The notes under the pieces: generated by a model
Told to the model about the DNA's origin: nothing
Seen by the model: only the letters and a program-made list of their open reading frames with translations
Databases searched by the model: none
Shown here: positions 21,614 to 39,823 of the stretch, piece after piece
Layout: every line of letters begins with the position of its first letter
Numbering within the stretch: position 1 is the stretch's first letter
Program-made: the position numbers and the translations under genes
From: a virus
Taxonomy: Duplodnaviria; Caudoviricetes
Virus record (IMG/VR): IMGVR_UViG_3300030376_001612
Coordinates: 1-64,000 of that record
Length of the DNA stretch: 64,000 bases
Reading direction: 5' to 3' (one strand)

Positions 21614-21637
21614 CCTAATTATTTTTCTCCCAAGCGG
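21614..21637 (+). promoter_or_regulatory. Conserved 24-bp motif, copy 1
   Basis: CCTAATTATTTTTCTCCCAAGCGG. Confidence 0.65.
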
Positions 21638-30382: not shown

Positions 30383-30406
30383 CCTATTTATTTTTCTCCC
30401 CAGCTG
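30383..30406 (+). promoter_or_regulatory. Conserved 24-bp motif, copy 2
   Basis: CCTATTTATTTTTCTCCCCAGCTG. Confidence 0.65.
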
Positions 30407-31669: not shown

Positions 31670-32347
31670 ATGTTAAGTACAAAAGACATGTCCGCTGGAA
31701 GCGGCAGAGTAAAACCAGTAATGGGTTCAGGTAACAATGTTATCAGAATCAACAGTGTAACATTTGATGTTACTCCATATGATGCAGATGCATATAATAT
31801 TGTATTACATGTAGAAGGTAAACCAGAAGAAGGAGAATTCCAAGGTTTCTTGAAAGATGTAGCTAATCCAGAAGGCCCAAGATATGAAGGTCAAGTTGGT
31901 AGAATTAGATTTGCTCCATATCCATACAAGGATACTACATTACCAAGTGGTGTAGAAATATCTAGAGATAATGAAGTACTTAAAGCTATGATTTATCTTA
32001 GTGAAGTACTAAATAAAAGAGATGCTTTAGATAAGATTGAGGCAAATACCATAGAAGACTTTATGGTTGAGTGCAATAAGTTATTCTCTAACAGTGAGTT
32101 CTTTAATGCTTGTATTGGCGGTAGAGAGTGGGAAAACAAAGACGGTTATGTAAACCTAGATCTGTTCTTACCACGTATGTCAAAAGATGGGATACCATTA
32201 GAAGCTCTAAATAAAGAGAACAGCAGACTACTAACATTCAATGAAAAGGATCACTTGAGAAGAATTCAAAAGAAAGAAAGTTCTTCTACAGGTAGTTTTG
32301 AGCCAGCAAAGACAACAGTAAATGCTGGTGATGACTTTGATTTGTAA
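31670..32347 (+). CDS. Putative single-stranded DNA-binding protein
   Basis: Between Sak4-like ATPase and primase; acidic GDDFDL tail. Confidence 0.55.
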   Translation: MLSTKDMSAGSGRVKPVMGSGNNVIRINSVTFDVTPYDADAYNIVLHVEGKPEEGEFQGFLKDVANPEGPRYEGQVGRIRFAPYPYKDTTLPSGVEISRDNEVLKAMIYLSEVLNKRDALDKIEANTIEDFMVECNKLFSNSEFFNACIGGREWENKDGYVNLDLFLPRMSKDGIPLEALNKENSRLLTFNEKDHLRRIQKKESSSTGSFEPAKTTVNAGDDFDL

Positions 32348-33399: not shown

Positions 33400-33870
33400 A
33401 TGAAGTGGTTTATACCAGGTAATGTACCAAGTAGTAAGAACGGAAGAAGATGGACAGGCAAATATTTTATTGCAAGTAAGACTGTAATGAATTATAGAAA
33501 GAAAACAAAACAGTATTTTGAACAATATGGTCCTTTGTTTGCAAAGGAACTTGAAAAATACAAACTCCCTGTCAAAATAGCTTTCACTTTTATTAGAGGT
33601 ACAAGACACAAGTTTGATTATATAAATCCTGCACAAACAATACAGGATGATATGGTTAAGCACGGATGGATTGAAGATGATGATATGAATCATATAGTAC
33701 CAGTGTTCCCTGAATACAGGTATGACAAAGTAAATCCAGGTGTATTTATAGAAATCTTAAAAGAAGAAGAAGAAAATGTACAATCAAAAGGACATAGAAA
33801 AGACAAACATATTAAAGACAGCACTACTTCAAAAGCTAAAAGATCAAGGAATAGCAGAAATACAAATTAA
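33400..33870 (+). CDS. RusA-like Holliday junction resolvase
   Basis: VPSSKN, FDYINPAQTIQD...WIEDDD. Confidence 0.7.
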   Translation: MKWFIPGNVPSSKNGRRWTGKYFIASKTVMNYRKKTKQYFEQYGPLFAKELEKYKLPVKIAFTFIRGTRHKFDYINPAQTIQDDMVKHGWIEDDDMNHIVPVFPEYRYDKVNPGVFIEILKEEEENVQSKGHRKDKHIKDSTTSKAKRSRNSRNTN

Positions 33871-34249
33871 TTTCTCTGGTTCTGGTGACAGTGGGGATAT
33901 AGATGAAGTAGAATATATAGACATGAATGGACTTAGTTCATGGCAACAAGGGTATCAAGGCCCTGAGAATCCAAATGAAACTGAAGATCAAATAAGAGAC
34001 CTATTCTATGATAAGGTAGATTATGAAGCGTGTAAGCACGGTGACTGGGTAAATAATGAAGGAGGTTATGGTAACTTGACTATAAATACAGATACCGGTT
34101 CATTTGAGCTTCAGTATTATCAAAGAACTGTAGAGTCTTATACAAGTGAAGGTGACTCAGTGTTTGATAAATTTGACAACAGTTTTGATGATATACCATT
34201 ACAATATAAAGTAAGGATGGGTCAGCTGCCTGGTACATACCAGCAGTAG
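33776..34249 (+). CDS. DUF6878-like protein
   Basis: FSGSGDSGDID, DWVNNEGGYG. Confidence 0.65.
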   Translation: MYNQKDIEKTNILKTALLQKLKDQGIAEIQINFSGSGDSGDIDEVEYIDMNGLSSWQQGYQGPENPNETEDQIRDLFYDKVDYEACKHGDWVNNEGGYGNLTINTDTGSFELQYYQRTVESYTSEGDSVFDKFDNSFDDIPLQYKVRMGQLPGTYQQ

Positions 34250-34259
34250 ATTTTTTTGT

Positions 34260-34283
34260 CCTATTTATATTTCTCCCTAGCTG
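34260..34283 (+). promoter_or_regulatory. Conserved 24-bp motif, copy 3
   Basis: CCTATTTATATTTCTCCCTAGCTG. Confidence 0.65.
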
Positions 34284-34303
34284 AAATTTGATAATTTATT
34301 TAT

Positions 34304-34651
34304 ATGGCACACCCGCTACTACACAGCAAGAGTTCTTGCAGGAAGTGGGGTGGACAAACTAGTGACTATGAACCAATACATAATTGGTTTGATGACACTA
34401 AAAGATGGTTGGGTCACTCTAATCACCGTATGTTCCGCCACCACTCTGAAGGGATCTTTGAAGCAGAACAAATATTTGGAAAAAGTTTTATCAACTCAGA
34501 TGGTAAAACAGTATATACAAGATATGTTGGAGAACAACATGTAAAAGAAGATTGCAATGGTTATATACCATCTGCAAAAGAATGGATGACATGTATAATG
34601 GGTAATGTCAGACCTAAATGGATGAGAAAAGCCCAACTAATTAATGATTAA
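34304..34651 (+). CDS. DUF6915-like His-rich protein
   Basis: MAHP..HSKSS, IHNWFD, HR..RHHSEG, EQHVKED. Confidence 0.7.
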   Translation: MAHPLLHSKSSCRKWGGQTSDYEPIHNWFDDTKRWLGHSNHRMFRHHSEGIFEAEQIFGKSFINSDGKTVYTRYVGEQHVKEDCNGYIPSAKEWMTCIMGNVRPKWMRKAQLIND

Positions 34652-35001
34652 TGGAAAAAGAAGATTTTAAGAATATACAAGCACTATTGAATGGTGCACC
34701 TGATGATTATGAGATTGCATTATCTAATATTAAAAATATGAAACCTCATGAAATCTTTATACTATTACTTGGCAAAGACCTTGTAAGTGAGAAACGCGCT
34801 AATTTTATTAAAGAGTTTCCTGCAATAAATTGGCCTGAAGGTAAAGACTTTACTTATAGGGCTTTATATAAAAGATGTAAGAATATGCCACCTAAAGTAC
34901 AGGAGGTTTTTACAGATATAATATCTAGACAAATATACAATGGATATTTGTGTGAGACATTTGAATTTGTAGAAGAACTAAAAATAGAGATAAAATGGTA
35001 A
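34651..35001 (+). CDS. Hypothetical helical protein
   Basis: ORF track; translationally coupled. Confidence 0.6.
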   Translation: MEKEDFKNIQALLNGAPDDYEIALSNIKNMKPHEIFILLLGKDLVSEKRANFIKEFPAINWPEGKDFTYRALYKRCKNMPPKVQEVFTDIISRQIYNGYLCETFEFVEELKIEIKW

Positions 35002-36146
35002 GAGAATATTTATCTAAAGCAATTAAGACACTAATACTTGAGGAGCCCTTTTACGGGCTCTTTATTGTTGGTCTCAATAAAACATATAGAACAGACATAC
35101 CTACAGCAGGTGTAAGTCAAAATGGTATAGGAGTACAACTAGTAGTAAATCCAGAGTACCTTGAGAATCTTAATGAAGATCAAAGGAAAGGATTACTTAA
35201 ACATGAAGTTCTTCATATATCATTTGGTCACTTGCTTACAAGGAATCTCTATAGTGATAAGCAATTATTTAATATTGCTGCAGATATAGAGATTAACCAA
35301 TATATTACAGAACGTTGTTTGCCAGAAGGAGGATTAACATTAAATAGTTTTCCTGAACTTAATTTGCCGGCTAAAGCAGGTACTGATAAGTACTATGAAT
35401 TATTACAGCAAGCTAAGAAAGATAATACATCTCCATCTCTTGATAATTTATTAGGTCAAATGGATGGTAATAGTCAGTATTGTCATAATACATGGGATGA
35501 GTTTGATAATCTACCTGAGTCAGAAAAGAAACTGATTAAGAAACAAGTGGAGCATCAGATAAAAGAAGTGGCACAACAAACAGAAAAGAGAAGAGGAAAC
35601 ATACCAGGAGAATTGGCAGAGTTAATACGTAAATTATTAAATATTACTCCACCTAAATTCAATTGGAAAGCTTATCTAAAAAGATTTGTAGGTAACTCTA
35701 GTGTAATATATACTAAGAAGCTTAGAAGGAAGTATAACAAAAGGTATAGTGAAAACCCAGGTTTGAAGATTAAAACTAAAAACCACGTATGTGTTGGTGT
35801 AGATACTTCTGGCTCAGTATCAACTAATGAGTTGATAGAATTTATGAATGAAATAAACCACATGCATAAGACGGGTCATAAAATTACAGTGGTACAGTGT
35901 GATACACAGATCACATCTATTGAAGACTTTAATCCTAAAAAGGATTGGGGTATTAAAGGTAGAGGAGGGACAGACTTCCAACCGGTGATTGATCACTACA
36001 ACCAAAGTAATTATACAGCACTAATATATCTAACAGATGGTGAAGCTTATACTCCACAAAACTGTCCTAAGAACGCATTATGGGTTCATAGTAGTCAATG
36101 TAGAATAAATGAAGAGTTACCAGGATTAAAAATACAATTAAATTAA
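34995..36146 (+). CDS. Metallopeptidase-like + vWA protein (DUF2201 type)
   Basis: HEVLH, NIAADIEIN; MIDAS DTSGS, GRGGTDF, YLTDG. Confidence 0.85.
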   Translation: MVREYLSKAIKTLILEEPFYGLFIVGLNKTYRTDIPTAGVSQNGIGVQLVVNPEYLENLNEDQRKGLLKHEVLHISFGHLLTRNLYSDKQLFNIAADIEINQYITERCLPEGGLTLNSFPELNLPAKAGTDKYYELLQQAKKDNTSPSLDNLLGQMDGNSQYCHNTWDEFDNLPESEKKLIKKQVEHQIKEVAQQTEKRRGNIPGELAELIRKLLNITPPKFNWKAYLKRFVGNSSVIYTKKLRRKYNKRYSENPGLKIKTKNHVCVGVDTSGSVSTNELIEFMNEINHMHKTGHKITVVQCDTQITSIEDFNPKKDWGIKGRGGTDFQPVIDHYNQSNYTALIYLTDGEAYTPQNCPKNALWVHSSQCRINEELPGLKIQLN

Positions 36147-36152
36147 AATAAA

Positions 36153-37433
36153 ATGGCAGAAGTAAATTTAAATATAGATGAATTAAAAGGGTTTGTTAAT
36201 CACATGATAACAAACAATAGACATATAAGAAAAGAAGGTAAGAATCCTGTCTCAGTAGAAATACTTGGTGAATCAGGTATTGGTAAAACTTCTACGGTTA
36301 TAGAGCTTGCTCAGGATAATAACCTAGACTTTGTAAAATTGAATCTATCACAGATAGAAGAGATAGGTGACCTTGTAGGATTTCCTGTACGTCAGTTCCA
36401 AATGTACAAAGAAAAGCAAATACCTGTAAAGAGCAATAGTTCTGATTTACAAATGGTAACAGCAACACAAAGAGCTGGAGGCGCTAGTCTTGCTAACTTA
36501 AGTACTACAAACACAGTTACAAAAAAAGTTGGTATGTGGGTAGATGAGTTAGCTGTGCAAGAATATCTTAAGCAAGGTTATATGATGACAGGCAAAAATA
36601 GAATGTCTTACTGTGCACCTGAGTGGATTGCTGATAAGAAGAAAGGTGGTATACTATTGCTAGATGACTGGAACCGTGCTGATATGAGGTTTATACAAGC
36701 TGTAATGGAGTTGGTTGACAGACAACAATATATATCATGGACATTACCTGAGGACTGGCATATTATATTGACAGCAAATCCAGATAACGGTGATTACATG
36801 GTAAATAGTGTTGACCCAGCACAAAAGACTAGATATATTACAGCTAATCTTAAGTATGATATAAATGTATGGGCTAGATGGGCAGAAGAAGCAGGTATAG
36901 ATACAAGATGTATTAACTTCTTGTTGCTACATCCTGAACTTGTGACACAAGAAACTAATGCAAGATCTATTACAACGTTCTTTAATGCAATATCAAGCTT
37001 TGAAAAGTTTGAGGATAACTTAACATTGATACAGTTGATTGGAGAAGGTAGTGTAGGAGACGCATTTGCTTCAATGTTTACAACATTTATTAATAATAAG
37101 CTAGATAAACTTGTGACACCAATGGATCTGTTAACTCATGATAATGAAGAATATATTCTTGGAGAGTTAAAAGGCTGTATTGGTAATGGAGACACATATC
37201 GTGCTGATATTGCGTCTACATTAGCAACAAGATTTGCAAACTATGCTGTAGTATATTCTAAAGATAATACTATAAATGATAAAGTAACAAATAGAATTGA
37301 GTCACTTGTAACAAAAGATTACTTTACTAATGACTTAAAATATCTAATTGTTAGAACCATCTATAATGGTAATAAGCAAAAGTTTAGTAAGCTTATGATG
37401 AAACCTGAAGTAATTAAAATGACAATGAAATAA
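36153..37433 (+). CDS. MoxR-like AAA+ ATPase
   Basis: GESGIGKT, LLLDDWNR, ILTANP, DPAQKTR. Confidence 0.85.
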   Translation: MAEVNLNIDELKGFVNHMITNNRHIRKEGKNPVSVEILGESGIGKTSTVIELAQDNNLDFVKLNLSQIEEIGDLVGFPVRQFQMYKEKQIPVKSNSSDLQMVTATQRAGGASLANLSTTNTVTKKVGMWVDELAVQEYLKQGYMMTGKNRMSYCAPEWIADKKKGGILLLDDWNRADMRFIQAVMELVDRQQYISWTLPEDWHIILTANPDNGDYMVNSVDPAQKTRYITANLKYDINVWARWAEEAGIDTRCINFLLLHPELVTQETNARSITTFFNAISSFEKFEDNLTLIQLIGEGSVGDAFASMFTTFINNKLDKLVTPMDLLTHDNEEYILGELKGCIGNGDTYRADIASTLATRFANYAVVYSKDNTINDKVTNRIESLVTKDYFTNDLKYLIVRTIYNGNKQKFSKLMMKPEVIKMTMK

Positions 37434-37435
37434 TT

Positions 37436-38455
37436 ATGAGTAAATACATTTTTAAAACTGTTCCTAAAAATGTATTAGATCATCACAACTTAGCAGACAC
37501 TAGTAAATTACACTATGTGTCTGCTTATGGTGATCTAATGCCTGTTTATTTGGCACAGGATCCAACACTAAGAGATACGCTTGTAGAGAAACTTAAAAAA
37601 TCTAATACAAGTACACTTGTTGGACAGGGATACAAGAAAGCTTTTATAATACCAGACTGTCCTGCAAAACTAGACAGAATGAAAATGGCATTAAAAGAGC
37701 ATAAAATAACTATAACAAATGATATAGATATTGCAGATGTAATTGTGACACACAACAACTTGTCAGATAGTTATGAAAGCAGTGCAAATATTAATAGTAA
37801 AAAACTATTTGCTGCTTTATGGAACTATAATGCATACCATATACCCGGTACAGAAAAAAGCTTGGTTTATCAAACAGATAAAGATCAAGATAAGTATGGT
37901 GGTACTTGGTCATGGGATGATGAGGATACAGATAGTATATATGAAATGGATTACTTCACAGGGCTTGGATTAGAATTATCTAAGAAATATGATGAGGCAT
38001 TTCCATTTGTAGACATAGAAACTGTTCTAGAAGAATCATCAACAAGGCAAACTCTTACAAAAGAATTGCTAGACTTGTTAATATCACAACACCGTGCAGG
38101 TGGTGATGATAGAGAATTAGCATTAAAGCTATTACCAACAGTAGATTGTAATAAAAACCATCATTTTCTGTGGGAACTATCTCAACAGATTGGTCATGAT
38201 ATATACTATGAAAGAAGAAACAAAGACCTAGGTTACTGGGTAAGACATAGTAAAGTCAATGACTATATGGATATGAGTGCAGAACAAATGATTATTTGGT
38301 TAAAAGAAAATGATTTACTAACTTCAAACTCATTCAGATACTTAGAACCCATTGTAAGAAAAGAGATACAAATTCACAATAGAGAATTATATGTCTTTAA
38401 ATGTATGGTAAAACCTGAGTTTTCTGAATACTTAAAATTAAATACAAATGAATAA
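37436..38455 (+). CDS. Hypothetical protein (BRCT-like segment)
   Basis: KITITNDIDIADVIV; paralogous to next gene. Confidence 0.6.
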   Translation: MSKYIFKTVPKNVLDHHNLADTSKLHYVSAYGDLMPVYLAQDPTLRDTLVEKLKKSNTSTLVGQGYKKAFIIPDCPAKLDRMKMALKEHKITITNDIDIADVIVTHNNLSDSYESSANINSKKLFAALWNYNAYHIPGTEKSLVYQTDKDQDKYGGTWSWDDEDTDSIYEMDYFTGLGLELSKKYDEAFPFVDIETVLEESSTRQTLTKELLDLLISQHRAGGDDRELALKLLPTVDCNKNHHFLWELSQQIGHDIYYERRNKDLGYWVRHSKVNDYMDMSAEQMIIWLKENDLLTSNSFRYLEPIVRKEIQIHNRELYVFKCMVKPEFSEYLKLNTNE

Positions 38456-39659
38456 AGCATATGAATTAAAAATTAATAAAGTATCTGATCGTGTACAAAT
38501 AAAAGGATCAGTTAATAATATTGGCTATTGGATTGGAGAAAAGGTATCATGGAAAGATCCTGTTCACAGTATAGTAAAACTGGATATTGCAAGTGAGCCA
38601 GATATGATTGAAATCCAAAATGCTAAACTATATAGATATCCAAAACTTTCATTACCAAGAGTCAAAGTAGAAACTTTGAAAGAAAAGTATGATGTTAAAG
38701 TAGTTAGAGACAGTAATAAAGCAGACTATAGTATTGTATCTAACAAGATGATAGAAGATTTACTAACAGTAAGTTGGCGTTCATACTATAATAAAGAACT
38801 ACTTGGTTTATTTATTAAGTGTCTTGATGTATTCAAAGATAAAGATATGTATTCAAATCAGTTTTATGATAATATAAAGTCCTTCTATGAAAACATTGAG
38901 GATAATGATAGAATAGATATTAACGTTAGCCTAGGATGGAATAATGATAATACTCATTTAGAAACATTTTCTCAAGCTTGGGATAAAGCATATCAACAAT
39001 ACTACAAAGGAATAGAAAGAACATATCACTCTGATGTAATATTAGCAAATGAAAATGTAAGCGCATTTCAAAATTTACAAAAGGAAAAGCTAGTATTAGA
39101 TAAGTGTATTAATAGAATATGTAATGAAGATGCTCATGTAATAACTGAAGATGAAGTTATTACTACAATGCAGATGATAAATTCTGGAGATGAAACATCT
39201 CGTTCATTAGCTGTTGAGATGCTTGCAAATTGTAATGTTGAGGAGTGCTTTGATAAAGTTGCTTACATGTGGACATTTGGTTATGATACAATTAGGTATG
39301 CTACAAACTGGAATACTGTAAATGTGAAAGCATTGAAAGAACGTATGCTAGATGTTACACCTCAGCAGAGTCAGATACATCAAATATACATGTATGAACA
39401 TTTAATAAGGGCTCTTATAAAAGAACAATCTTTTACAGAATGGGCTTGGAATAAATTACAAGAGGATATATACAATAATGTTATTAAGAGTTATGGTTTG
39501 TCTAATAAGAACAAAGATCATGATAACGTTATAGATATAAATATTGCTGATATAAAACTATCAGATAAATATTCAAGCTGTATTGTAAAAGAAGAATCAG
39601 GTAAAGAAATCTTAGATGAGATTACTCAGCCTGATGGATTTGATGATTTACCATTTTAA
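38448..39659 (+). CDS. Hypothetical protein (BRCT-like segment, DDLPF tail)
   Basis: VKVVRDSNKADYSIV; ends GFDDLPF. Confidence 0.6.
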   Translation: MNKAYELKINKVSDRVQIKGSVNNIGYWIGEKVSWKDPVHSIVKLDIASEPDMIEIQNAKLYRYPKLSLPRVKVETLKEKYDVKVVRDSNKADYSIVSNKMIEDLLTVSWRSYYNKELLGLFIKCLDVFKDKDMYSNQFYDNIKSFYENIEDNDRIDINVSLGWNNDNTHLETFSQAWDKAYQQYYKGIERTYHSDVILANENVSAFQNLQKEKLVLDKCINRICNEDAHVITEDEVITTMQMINSGDETSRSLAVEMLANCNVEECFDKVAYMWTFGYDTIRYATNWNTVNVKALKERMLDVTPQQSQIHQIYMYEHLIRALIKEQSFTEWAWNKLQEDIYNNVIKSYGLSNKNKDHDNVIDINIADIKLSDKYSSCIVKEESGKEILDEITQPDGFDDLPF

Positions 39660-39661
39660 TT

Positions 39662-39823
39662 ATGGGAGATCTAGGACATTTTGGAACTAACGCTAGAGAG
39701 CTTGAGCGCAAGAGTATCATAGATGAAATTCTTAAGCTTAAGGCTCTACCGTATAGTTCAAAGAGAAAACTTGAAATACAGAAACTTCAACAAAAATTAA
39801 ATAATTATGACCGAAGAGGATAA
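39662..39823 (+). CDS. Small hypothetical protein
   Basis: Own translation, 53 aa. Confidence 0.45.
   Translation: MGDLGHFGTNARELERKSIIDEILKLKALPYSSKRKLEIQKLQQKLNNYDRRG

Follow-up and report, generated by a model that had tools for sequence, protein, structure and literature searches.

A MoxR ATPase and metallopeptidase-vWA gene pair bracketed by candidate adaptor genes in the replication module of an uncultured marine phage

Here, we report a five-gene cassette (P3 to P7) in which genes for a metallopeptidase-vWA protein (P4) and a MoxR-type AAA+ ATPase (P5) lie side by side and are flanked on both sides by three partner genes (P3, P6, and P7). The cassette belongs to an uncultured marine phage lineage with a genome of ~110 kb and lies in the first 64 kb (positions 1 to 64,000, called the window below) of IMG/VR virus record IMGVR_UViG_3300030376_001612, which is 109,954 bp long and 95% complete by estimate; every gene around it is on the + strand, as is the cassette itself. 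We tentatively propose that it encodes a replisome-linked remodelling and proteolysis machine, with the products of P3, P6, and P7 as putative adaptors. The ATPase/peptidase-vWA pair is already published and occurs in hundreds of phage genomes, with no experimentally established function found; the BRCT-like/ARM-like partner family is not published. Fixed, dedicated partners with a BRCT-like fold, ARM/HEAT-like helices, and a tip of the SSB type (SSB, the protein binding single-stranded DNA) offer concrete client and recruitment hypotheses for the pair and direct attention to DNA replication over virion assembly.

An earlier reading of the window (the original prediction) had described seven genes as one tightly coupled run. 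All seven open reading frames (ORFs) were recovered with the proposed families (ORF list, Pfam, and PHROG) and are given here together with a promoter-like motif (window coordinates, strand, and product or feature):

33776..34249, + strand, DUF6878 protein (Pfam E value, 1.2e-14)
34260..34283, + strand, 24-bp promoter-like motif (further copies at 21614-21637 and 30383-30406)
34304..34651, + strand, DUF6915 His-rich protein (Pfam E value, 7.6e-39; phrog_8143), first gene 3' of the motif at 34260
34651..35001, + strand, P3, 116-aa all-helical protein, no family match
34995..36146, + strand, P4, zincin-like metallopeptidase (HExxH) plus vWA (DUF2201_N, E value 1.5e-21; DUF2201, E value 7.4e-18; motifs HEVLH and DTSGS)
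36153..37433, + strand, P5, MoxR/AAA_5-type AAA+ ATPase (phrog_1297, E value 1.2e-34)
37436..38455, + strand, P6, 339 aa, no family match, AlphaFold (AF2) model
38448..39659, + strand, P7, 403 aa, no family match, AF2 model

The tight coupling applies from the DUF6915 gene through P7, where neighbouring frames overlap by 1 to 8 nt or are separated by 2 to 6 nt (P3 stop and P4 start overlap by 7 nt; P4-to-P5 gap, 6 nt). It does not extend to the DUF6878 gene, which ends 54 nt before the DUF6915 gene, overlaps the preceding RusA ORF (33400-33870) by 95 nt in a different frame, and sits 5' of the motif, so the seven ORFs do not form one uninterrupted unit. With the promoter-like motif between them, DUF6878 is assigned to the upstream unit and DUF6915 to the head of the downstream one.

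Related loci were collected with a P6-family profile (344 relatives in IMG/VR), 80 of them were fetched, and their ORFs were labelled using iterated hidden Markov models (HMMs) of every window gene. P3-P4-P5-P6-P7 occurred in the same order in every fetched locus that spans the block, and the genes are found together in more than 80 loci of related phages, in agreement with the predicted co-occurrence. The DUF6878 and DUF6915 genes were present or absent jointly and occurred in about one-third of the loci (27 ORF matches each versus 82 to 90 for their neighbours); the other two-thirds keep the remaining five genes without them, and the seven-gene boundary was therefore dropped. The core cassette is P3 to P7, with DUF6878 and DUF6915 as optional neighbours. 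A divergent clade (loci L093 and L094) retains P3-like, P4, P5, P6-position, and P7-position genes; inserted among these are a gene for a GIY-YIG endonuclease and two small ORFs of 88 and 68 aa. Cultured phages with related polymerases include the Crassvirales phage Cellulophaga phi14:2 (31.5% identity), which shares with the window the order DnaB, Sak4, 222-aa protein, and primase, and likewise has a PolB. In phi14:2, tblastn and HMMs detected no relative of P3, P4, P5, P6, or P7 (the P4-profile run lacked a positive control). Kept in L093/L094 yet undetectable in phi14:2 despite common surroundings, the five genes act as one insertable cassette.

The predicted pairing of a MoxR-type AAA+ ATPase with a metallopeptidase-vWA protein (the engine) is borne out by family models and catalytic motifs. 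P4 scored well above the curated Pfam cut-offs (DUF2201_N, 77.6 bits with a cut-off of 23.2; DUF2201, 65.3 bits with a cut-off of 26.4) and matched phrog_1314 (E value, 1.2e-68). Across 35 orthologues, its HExxH residues H70, E71, and H74 are invariant, as is a complete MIDAS set (D270, S272, S274, T326, and D348; DxSxS...T...D). P5 carries Walker A (GESGIGKT, residues 39 to 46), Walker B with the NRA motif (LLLDDWNRA, 167 to 176), and an ANP sensor-1 region (208 to 210), with the key residues (GESGIGKT, DD, NRA, and NP) invariant in 25 orthologues. It scored 16.5 bits against Pfam AAA_5, under the 22-bit cut-off; its best solved relatives are midasin AAA domains (E value, 1.3e-6), and its tblastn matches fall on genes annotated as MoxR-like ATPase. 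Walker A and Walker B are spaced by ~120 residues, an interval that includes a variable low-complexity stretch, which could be a helix-2 insert of larger size that faces the pore. In all related loci, P4 and P5 are neighbours, with at most one or two small ORFs between them.

Several further features of the engine genes were noted. The variable low-complexity part of the Walker A-B interval corresponds to P5 residues ~85 to 135 (window 36400-36560). The label "HNH endonuclease" attached to phrog_1314 has spread to many GenBank records (e.g., OR602862.1 and NC_021532.1); because neither the Pfam domains nor the motifs back that name, it is evidently a misannotation of the peptidase-vWA family, as judged from sequence. 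In several relatives, the vWA and ATPase genes are separated by an additional ORF of 128 to 129 aa (L052, 5313-5699; L069, 5308-5697) that matches nothing in Pfam. The P4 gene is split in some relatives by an insertion with a LAGLIDADG endonuclease ORF, and the P5 gene is split or neighboured in others by a GIY-YIG/NUMOD1 endonuclease ORF (regions concerned: L070, 3040-5310; L068, 3449-5719; L041, 3936-6325; L093, 5497-6105). These insertions look like intron-like homing elements, whose invasion is typically seen in core genes of high conservation.

The 339-aa and 403-aa proteins had been predicted to be paralogous, and profile evidence supports this, although at a distance beyond the reach of BLASTP (P6 versus P7, E value 0.55; no comparison among P3, P6, and P7 was significant). 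Profile-profile alignment matched the C-terminal halves collinearly over 124 columns (E values, 8e-4 to 3e-3, at low probability). An exhaustive HMM search with the P6 profile returned 295 representatives at E values of ≤1e-3, including a second tier of 356- to 399-aa proteins (E values, 1e-24 to 1e-15), many of which also match the P7 profile. The P6-position protein of L093, for example, matched the clean P6 HMM at 7.8e-21 and the clean P7 HMM at 5.8e-12 over residues 41 to 356. Such bridging sequences, which fit both family HMMs, are the decisive evidence that P6 and P7 are, as far as profiles can tell, distant paralogues. The partner family comprises at least 295 representative clusters in metagenomes, with no Pfam or functional PHROG annotation. 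A tblastn search of 50,697 phage records with P6, P7, and P0311 (a distant homologue) gave no match, and no cultured phage in that collection carries the family.

The AF2 models of both proteins (mean predicted local distance difference test [pLDDT] scores of 87.8 for P6 and 84.9 for P7) have their secondary-structure elements in identical order, and both matched several identical PDB chains at the same chain ranges and in the same order. P6 consists of an N-terminal hairpin, a BRCT-like alpha/beta domain with an insert (residues ~62 to 204), ARM/HEAT-like helices (~205 to 280), and a highly conserved C-terminal region; P7 has a BRCT-like domain (55 to 228) and ARM/HEAT-like helices (229 to 308), followed by a low-confidence C-terminal linker. 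Using VIA-align, P6 62-204 and P7 55-228 aligned to more than 15 different BRCT domains, including those of BAF155, Mdb1, MCPH1, XRCC1, TopBP1, PARP1, Rad4, and Rev1, with Z scores of 4.1 to 6.8 (P6, 5.0 to 6.8; P7, 4.1 to 6.0). The alignments cover 63 to 79 residues at a root mean square deviation of mostly 2.6 to 4.0 Å (6 to 9 Å for BAF155), with Z below 8 and a large insert. The helical parts matched designed armadillo proteins, STAG1, AP complexes, and beta-catenin over ~65 to 80 residues, with Z scores of 5 to 7.4 (P6, 5 to 6.7; P7, up to 7.4), a range common for helical folds. Foldseek against the PDB gave nothing at E values of ≤0.001 for either protein (a weak match of P7 to the PARP1 BRCT domain had a probability of 0.91 and an E value of 0.35), and the ESM Atlas gave sub-threshold matches only for P6. 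Against BFVD, the P7 model matched four uncharacterised viral proteins (E values, 4e-9 to 4e-7), two of them from one virus and one from a crAss-like virus.

The BRCT-like call of the original prediction thus stands as a likeness of predicted folds. Membership of the BRCT family is not claimed, because the Z scores are middling and Pfam BRCT profiles gave nothing beyond one match (E value, 0.039) in 1 of the 56 family members scanned. Pfam scans of family members otherwise gave scattered sub-threshold matches; a Death effector domain match in 5 of 30 members of the P6 family (best E value, 0.008; members outside the 20 that were re-scanned) was also sub-threshold and was taken as noise.

P3 is probably homologous to the helical domain of P6 and P7. 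A word-based homologue search retrieved near-identical P3 sequences only, and orthologues were therefore taken by locus position. An HMM built from them and run against 1,758 ORFs matched P6 members at ~213 to 256 and P7 members at ~236 to 275 (E values, 1e-5 to 1e-3); a few of these matches span the whole of P3. With hhalign, P3 matched P7 at a probability of 84% (E value, 7.4e-6) and P6 at 27% (E value, 6.8e-4). The three pairwise registers are mutually consistent and agree with the three peptides aligned in the original prediction, whose shared helical motif is thereby recovered, also by an HMM of P3 only. The 147-aa P3-like protein of L093 matched both the P3 HMM and the P7 HMM (positions 236 to 277). 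The matching part of P3 is its N-terminal ~40 residues, aligned with the start of the P6/P7 helical domain, and P3 looks like a free copy of that start. It is highly variable, with column identity averaging 30%, but keeps D19 and R49 without exception. Some of the likeness could be repeat-type convergence, because in its overall appearance the motif recalls the signature of HEAT/ARM repeats.

Conservation divides the cassette. Identities were taken as medians to the window proteins over the more distant loci and were 87.5% for DnaB, 78.7% for Sak4, 78.6% for P5, 72.3% for the polymerase, and 69.0% for P4, compared with 37.8% for P6, 30.5% for P7, and 26.4% for P3. The engine is as constrained as the replication enzymes, and no genes in the block vary more than the three partners.

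A link to replication is suggested by the end of P7 and by the position of the cassette. After its linker, P7 terminates in FDDLPF (pLDDT of the last ~25 residues, 44 to 60). The tip is kept down to 38% identity while the linker varies, and other P7 clades end independently in ...EDLPF, ...IDLPF, or ...SPLPF. In bacteria, the C-terminal tip of SSB (Escherichia coli, DDDIPF) recruits genome-maintenance proteins, and in phage HK620 such a tip also recruits the neighbouring Sak4 (PMC5928155). By its sequence signature, the P7 tail is an SSB-type C-terminal tip. Only 2 of the 378 ORFs in the genome have such an acidic-hydrophobic tail, namely, P7 and a 225-aa protein (31670-32347, + strand; GDDFDL) encoded directly 3' of the Sak4-like gene. 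The 225-aa protein had no Pfam or PHROG match; because its tail (...FEP...GDDFDL) is kept in all relatives, it is likely the phage SSB and the partner of Sak4, as in HK620. The cassette itself is placed between primase/RusA and the PD-(D/E)XK nuclease/DNA polymerase. This context favours DNA replication or recombination at least as strongly as the host takeover or anti-defence role that had been suggested.

Several cellular systems couple an AAA_5-type ATPase to a MIDAS vWA partner, including RavA-ViaA, CbbQ-CbbO, NorQ-NorD, and midasin/Rea1, and there the MIDAS holds on to an acidic residue in a client or adaptor. The window pair resembles them in this combination and in having midasin as the best solved relative of P5; it differs in the N-terminal zincin peptidase of its vWA protein and in being phage encoded, within a replication module. 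Ternary conflict systems of vWA, MoxR, and VMAP (Kaur, Burroughs, Iyer, and Aravind 2020, PMC7159879) likewise join a MoxR ATPase and a vWA protein with lineage-specific third components; they differ from the window in being cellular defence islands rather than a viral replication module, and no effector domains were found here. Closer counterparts are viral. Pairs of the P4/P5 type are present in 496 phage records, including N4-like and several jumbo phages, and are adjacent in N4 (VEc25), Moorella phage MTATph1, and Alteromonas phage AD45. N4-like phages conserve gp24 (AAA ATPase) and gp25 (vWFA) of N4, whose function is unknown (PMC2784036). The N4 pair and that of the group 2.2 jumbo phages share with the window phrog_1297 and phrog_1314, DUF2201_N plus DUF2201, adjacent and codirectional genes, intact HExxH, MIDAS, and Walker motifs, and a location among nonstructural genes. 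They differ in sequence (only 23 to 30% identity for P4 and ~21 to 26% for P5) and, in N4 and the Moorella phage, in gene order, with the ATPase before the vWA gene rather than after it. The window pair is, moreover, always bracketed by the three partner-family members, which are undetectable in those phages: HMMs of P3, P6, and P7 gave no matches in the N4, Moorella, Alteromonas, and phi14:2 loci, and P6/P7 profiles (hhalign) showed no similarity to the genes adjoining the pair in MTATph1 and AD45.

We favour a link between partners and engine because partner homologues flank the engine on both sides with overlapping or nearly abutting frames. P3, P6, and P7 would then be adaptors or client selectors of the ATPase-protease, and their shared helical element may offer a conserved acidic residue, D19 in P3 and the D/E aligned with it in P6 and P7, to the MIDAS site of the P4 vWA domain, in the way that MIDAS domains hold ligands. 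Through its BRCT-like domains and the FDDLPF tip of P7, the machine could be held at intermediates of replication or recombination, there to unfold proteins at the cost of ATP, proteolyse them, and so remodel or remove them while phage DNA is being replicated. We hold this replisome-linked reading to be a real but tentative possibility, and four points weigh against it. The BRCT-like and ARM-like assignments come from middling Z scores (4 to 7.4) with no Pfam BRCT profile match. About two-thirds of P7 clades are without the LPF tip. The whole block is collinear in every related locus, so that genes linked to the engine and genes that just belong to the replication module would co-occur alike. 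Proposals in print for the pair diverge, one being a virion-assembly chaperone (PMC7824862) and the other a role of the MoxR ATPase against defence (bioRxiv 10.1101/2025.11.20.689424).

Of the rivals, an anti-defence or host-takeover machine fares best. Here, the ATPase-protease would unfold or cleave host immunity or other proteins, with P3, P6, and P7 as target-recognition adaptors in an arms race, and the pattern of the three fastest-evolving genes in the block beside a highly conserved engine fits this; the P7 mimic of an SSB tip could equally decoy or hijack SSB-binding host proteins. A possible parallel is phage Bas54, whose MoxR ATPase gene is reported to be dispensable in a laboratory strain and needed against the predicted defence system DS-28 (bioRxiv 10.1101/2025.11.20.689424); its ATPase may or may not be of the DUF2201-paired type. 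PADLOC models run against the seven proteins gave a sole, weak match, of the P5 Walker A region to DolB (E value, 3.3e-5; 44 residues). The cassette position, moreover, is fixed in the replication module rather than in an accessory region prone to variation, DnaB and the polymerase are no more conserved than the engine, and the homing endonucleases in the P4 and P5 genes of relatives are typical of core conserved genes. On balance, an anti-defence role seems rather unlikely.

Somewhat more doubtful is the independence of engine and partners, in which P3, P6, and P7 would be replication or recombination accessories (e.g., BRCT-like/SSB-tip scaffolds) that merely lie beside the pair. Collinearity of the block from DnaB to the polymerase in all related loci makes adjacency weak evidence, and N4, Moorella, Alteromonas, and other phages have the pair without a detectable P3, P6, or P7 relative. 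Against independence, the partner family stands on both sides of the pair in overlapping or nearly abutting frames, the arrangement lasts into the distant L093 clade despite inserted ORFs, and phi14:2 is without a detectable relative of each of the five genes.

For this combination of domains in group 2.2 jumbo phages, Iyer et al. 2021 proposed a virion-assembly chaperone with a processing protease, by analogy with the MoxR-vWA pair of Acidianus two-tailed virus, for which that role has been shown (PMC7824862); such a role is improbable here, as the pair in the window and in N4 sits among replication/middle genes, the window pair is on the early/replication strand behind its motif class and not in the structural gene block, which is on the opposite strand, and the partners have BRCT-like and SSB-tip features, not those of structural proteins.

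The replisome-linked reading admits a more specific and considerably less likely form, drawn by analogy. In eukaryotes, SPRTN/Wss1 acts with p97/Cdc48 as a zincin-type metalloprotease and an AAA+ unfoldase that are brought to replication forks by short adaptor motifs. The cassette might be a bacterial-virus counterpart, a replisome-tethered unfoldase-protease; the analogy is functional only, the ATPases being of different clades. BRCT-like/ARM-like adaptors would dock on the vWA MIDAS via the acidic residue of the shared element, the SSB-tip mimic of P7 would plug the machine into the SSB interaction hub, and the ATPase and zincin would strip or digest fork blocks (host nucleoid proteins, stalled complexes, or DNA-protein crosslinks). 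Were this true, the gp24/gp25 pair of N4-like and jumbo phages would also gain its first functional handle.

The predicted motif copy at 34260 is real. With 2 mismatches, the 24-mer at 34260-34283 is found again at 30383 (chance expectation, 0), and its core, TTCTCCCNAGC, has exactly 3 copies in the window (21625, 30394, and 34271), all on the + strand, with 0 expected by chance. Each motif copy lies 20 to 55 nt 5' of a start codon, and relatives L003 and L004 (~60% protein identity) keep the motif ~39 nt 5' of the DUF6915 gene and of the 176-aa gene. The motif is a candidate phage-specific early or middle promoter, and the promoter-like copy at 34260 would mark the start of the transcription unit that holds the cassette; the same motif class also heads the unit with the 176-aa gene, Sak4, the SSB candidate, primase, and RusA. 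A 21-mer from 34253 used as the query had a single copy in the window, and a scan for sigma-70-type promoters found fewer sites than in shuffled sequence and was uninformative.

The replication block on either side of the cassette is composed as follows:

Start 29425, + strand, DnaB-type helicase, head of the replication block
Next, in order, + strand, 176-aa protein; Sak4-like annealing ATPase (phrog_2872, E value 1e-63); 225-aa protein; primase; RusA
39662..39823, + strand, 53-aa ORF, 2 nt 3' of P7, with homologues in close relatives only (e.g., L003, L004, and L012)
Next, in order, + strand, PD-(D/E)XK nuclease; two unknowns; DNA polymerase (phrog_1252, E value 3e-128)

The 53-aa ORF is a possible extra small cassette member in the closest relatives. 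The Pfam match of RusA stops near residue 119, and a basic C-terminal tail is coded inside the overlap with DUF6878. Part of the DUF6915 gene (34374-34551) has 72 to 80% nucleotide identity over 100 to 180 nt to Bacillus Tsamsa-like phages (Tsamsa, Izhevsk, and Chewbecca); in a low-GC marine phage of another host group, this likeness suggests strong constraint or recent exchange.

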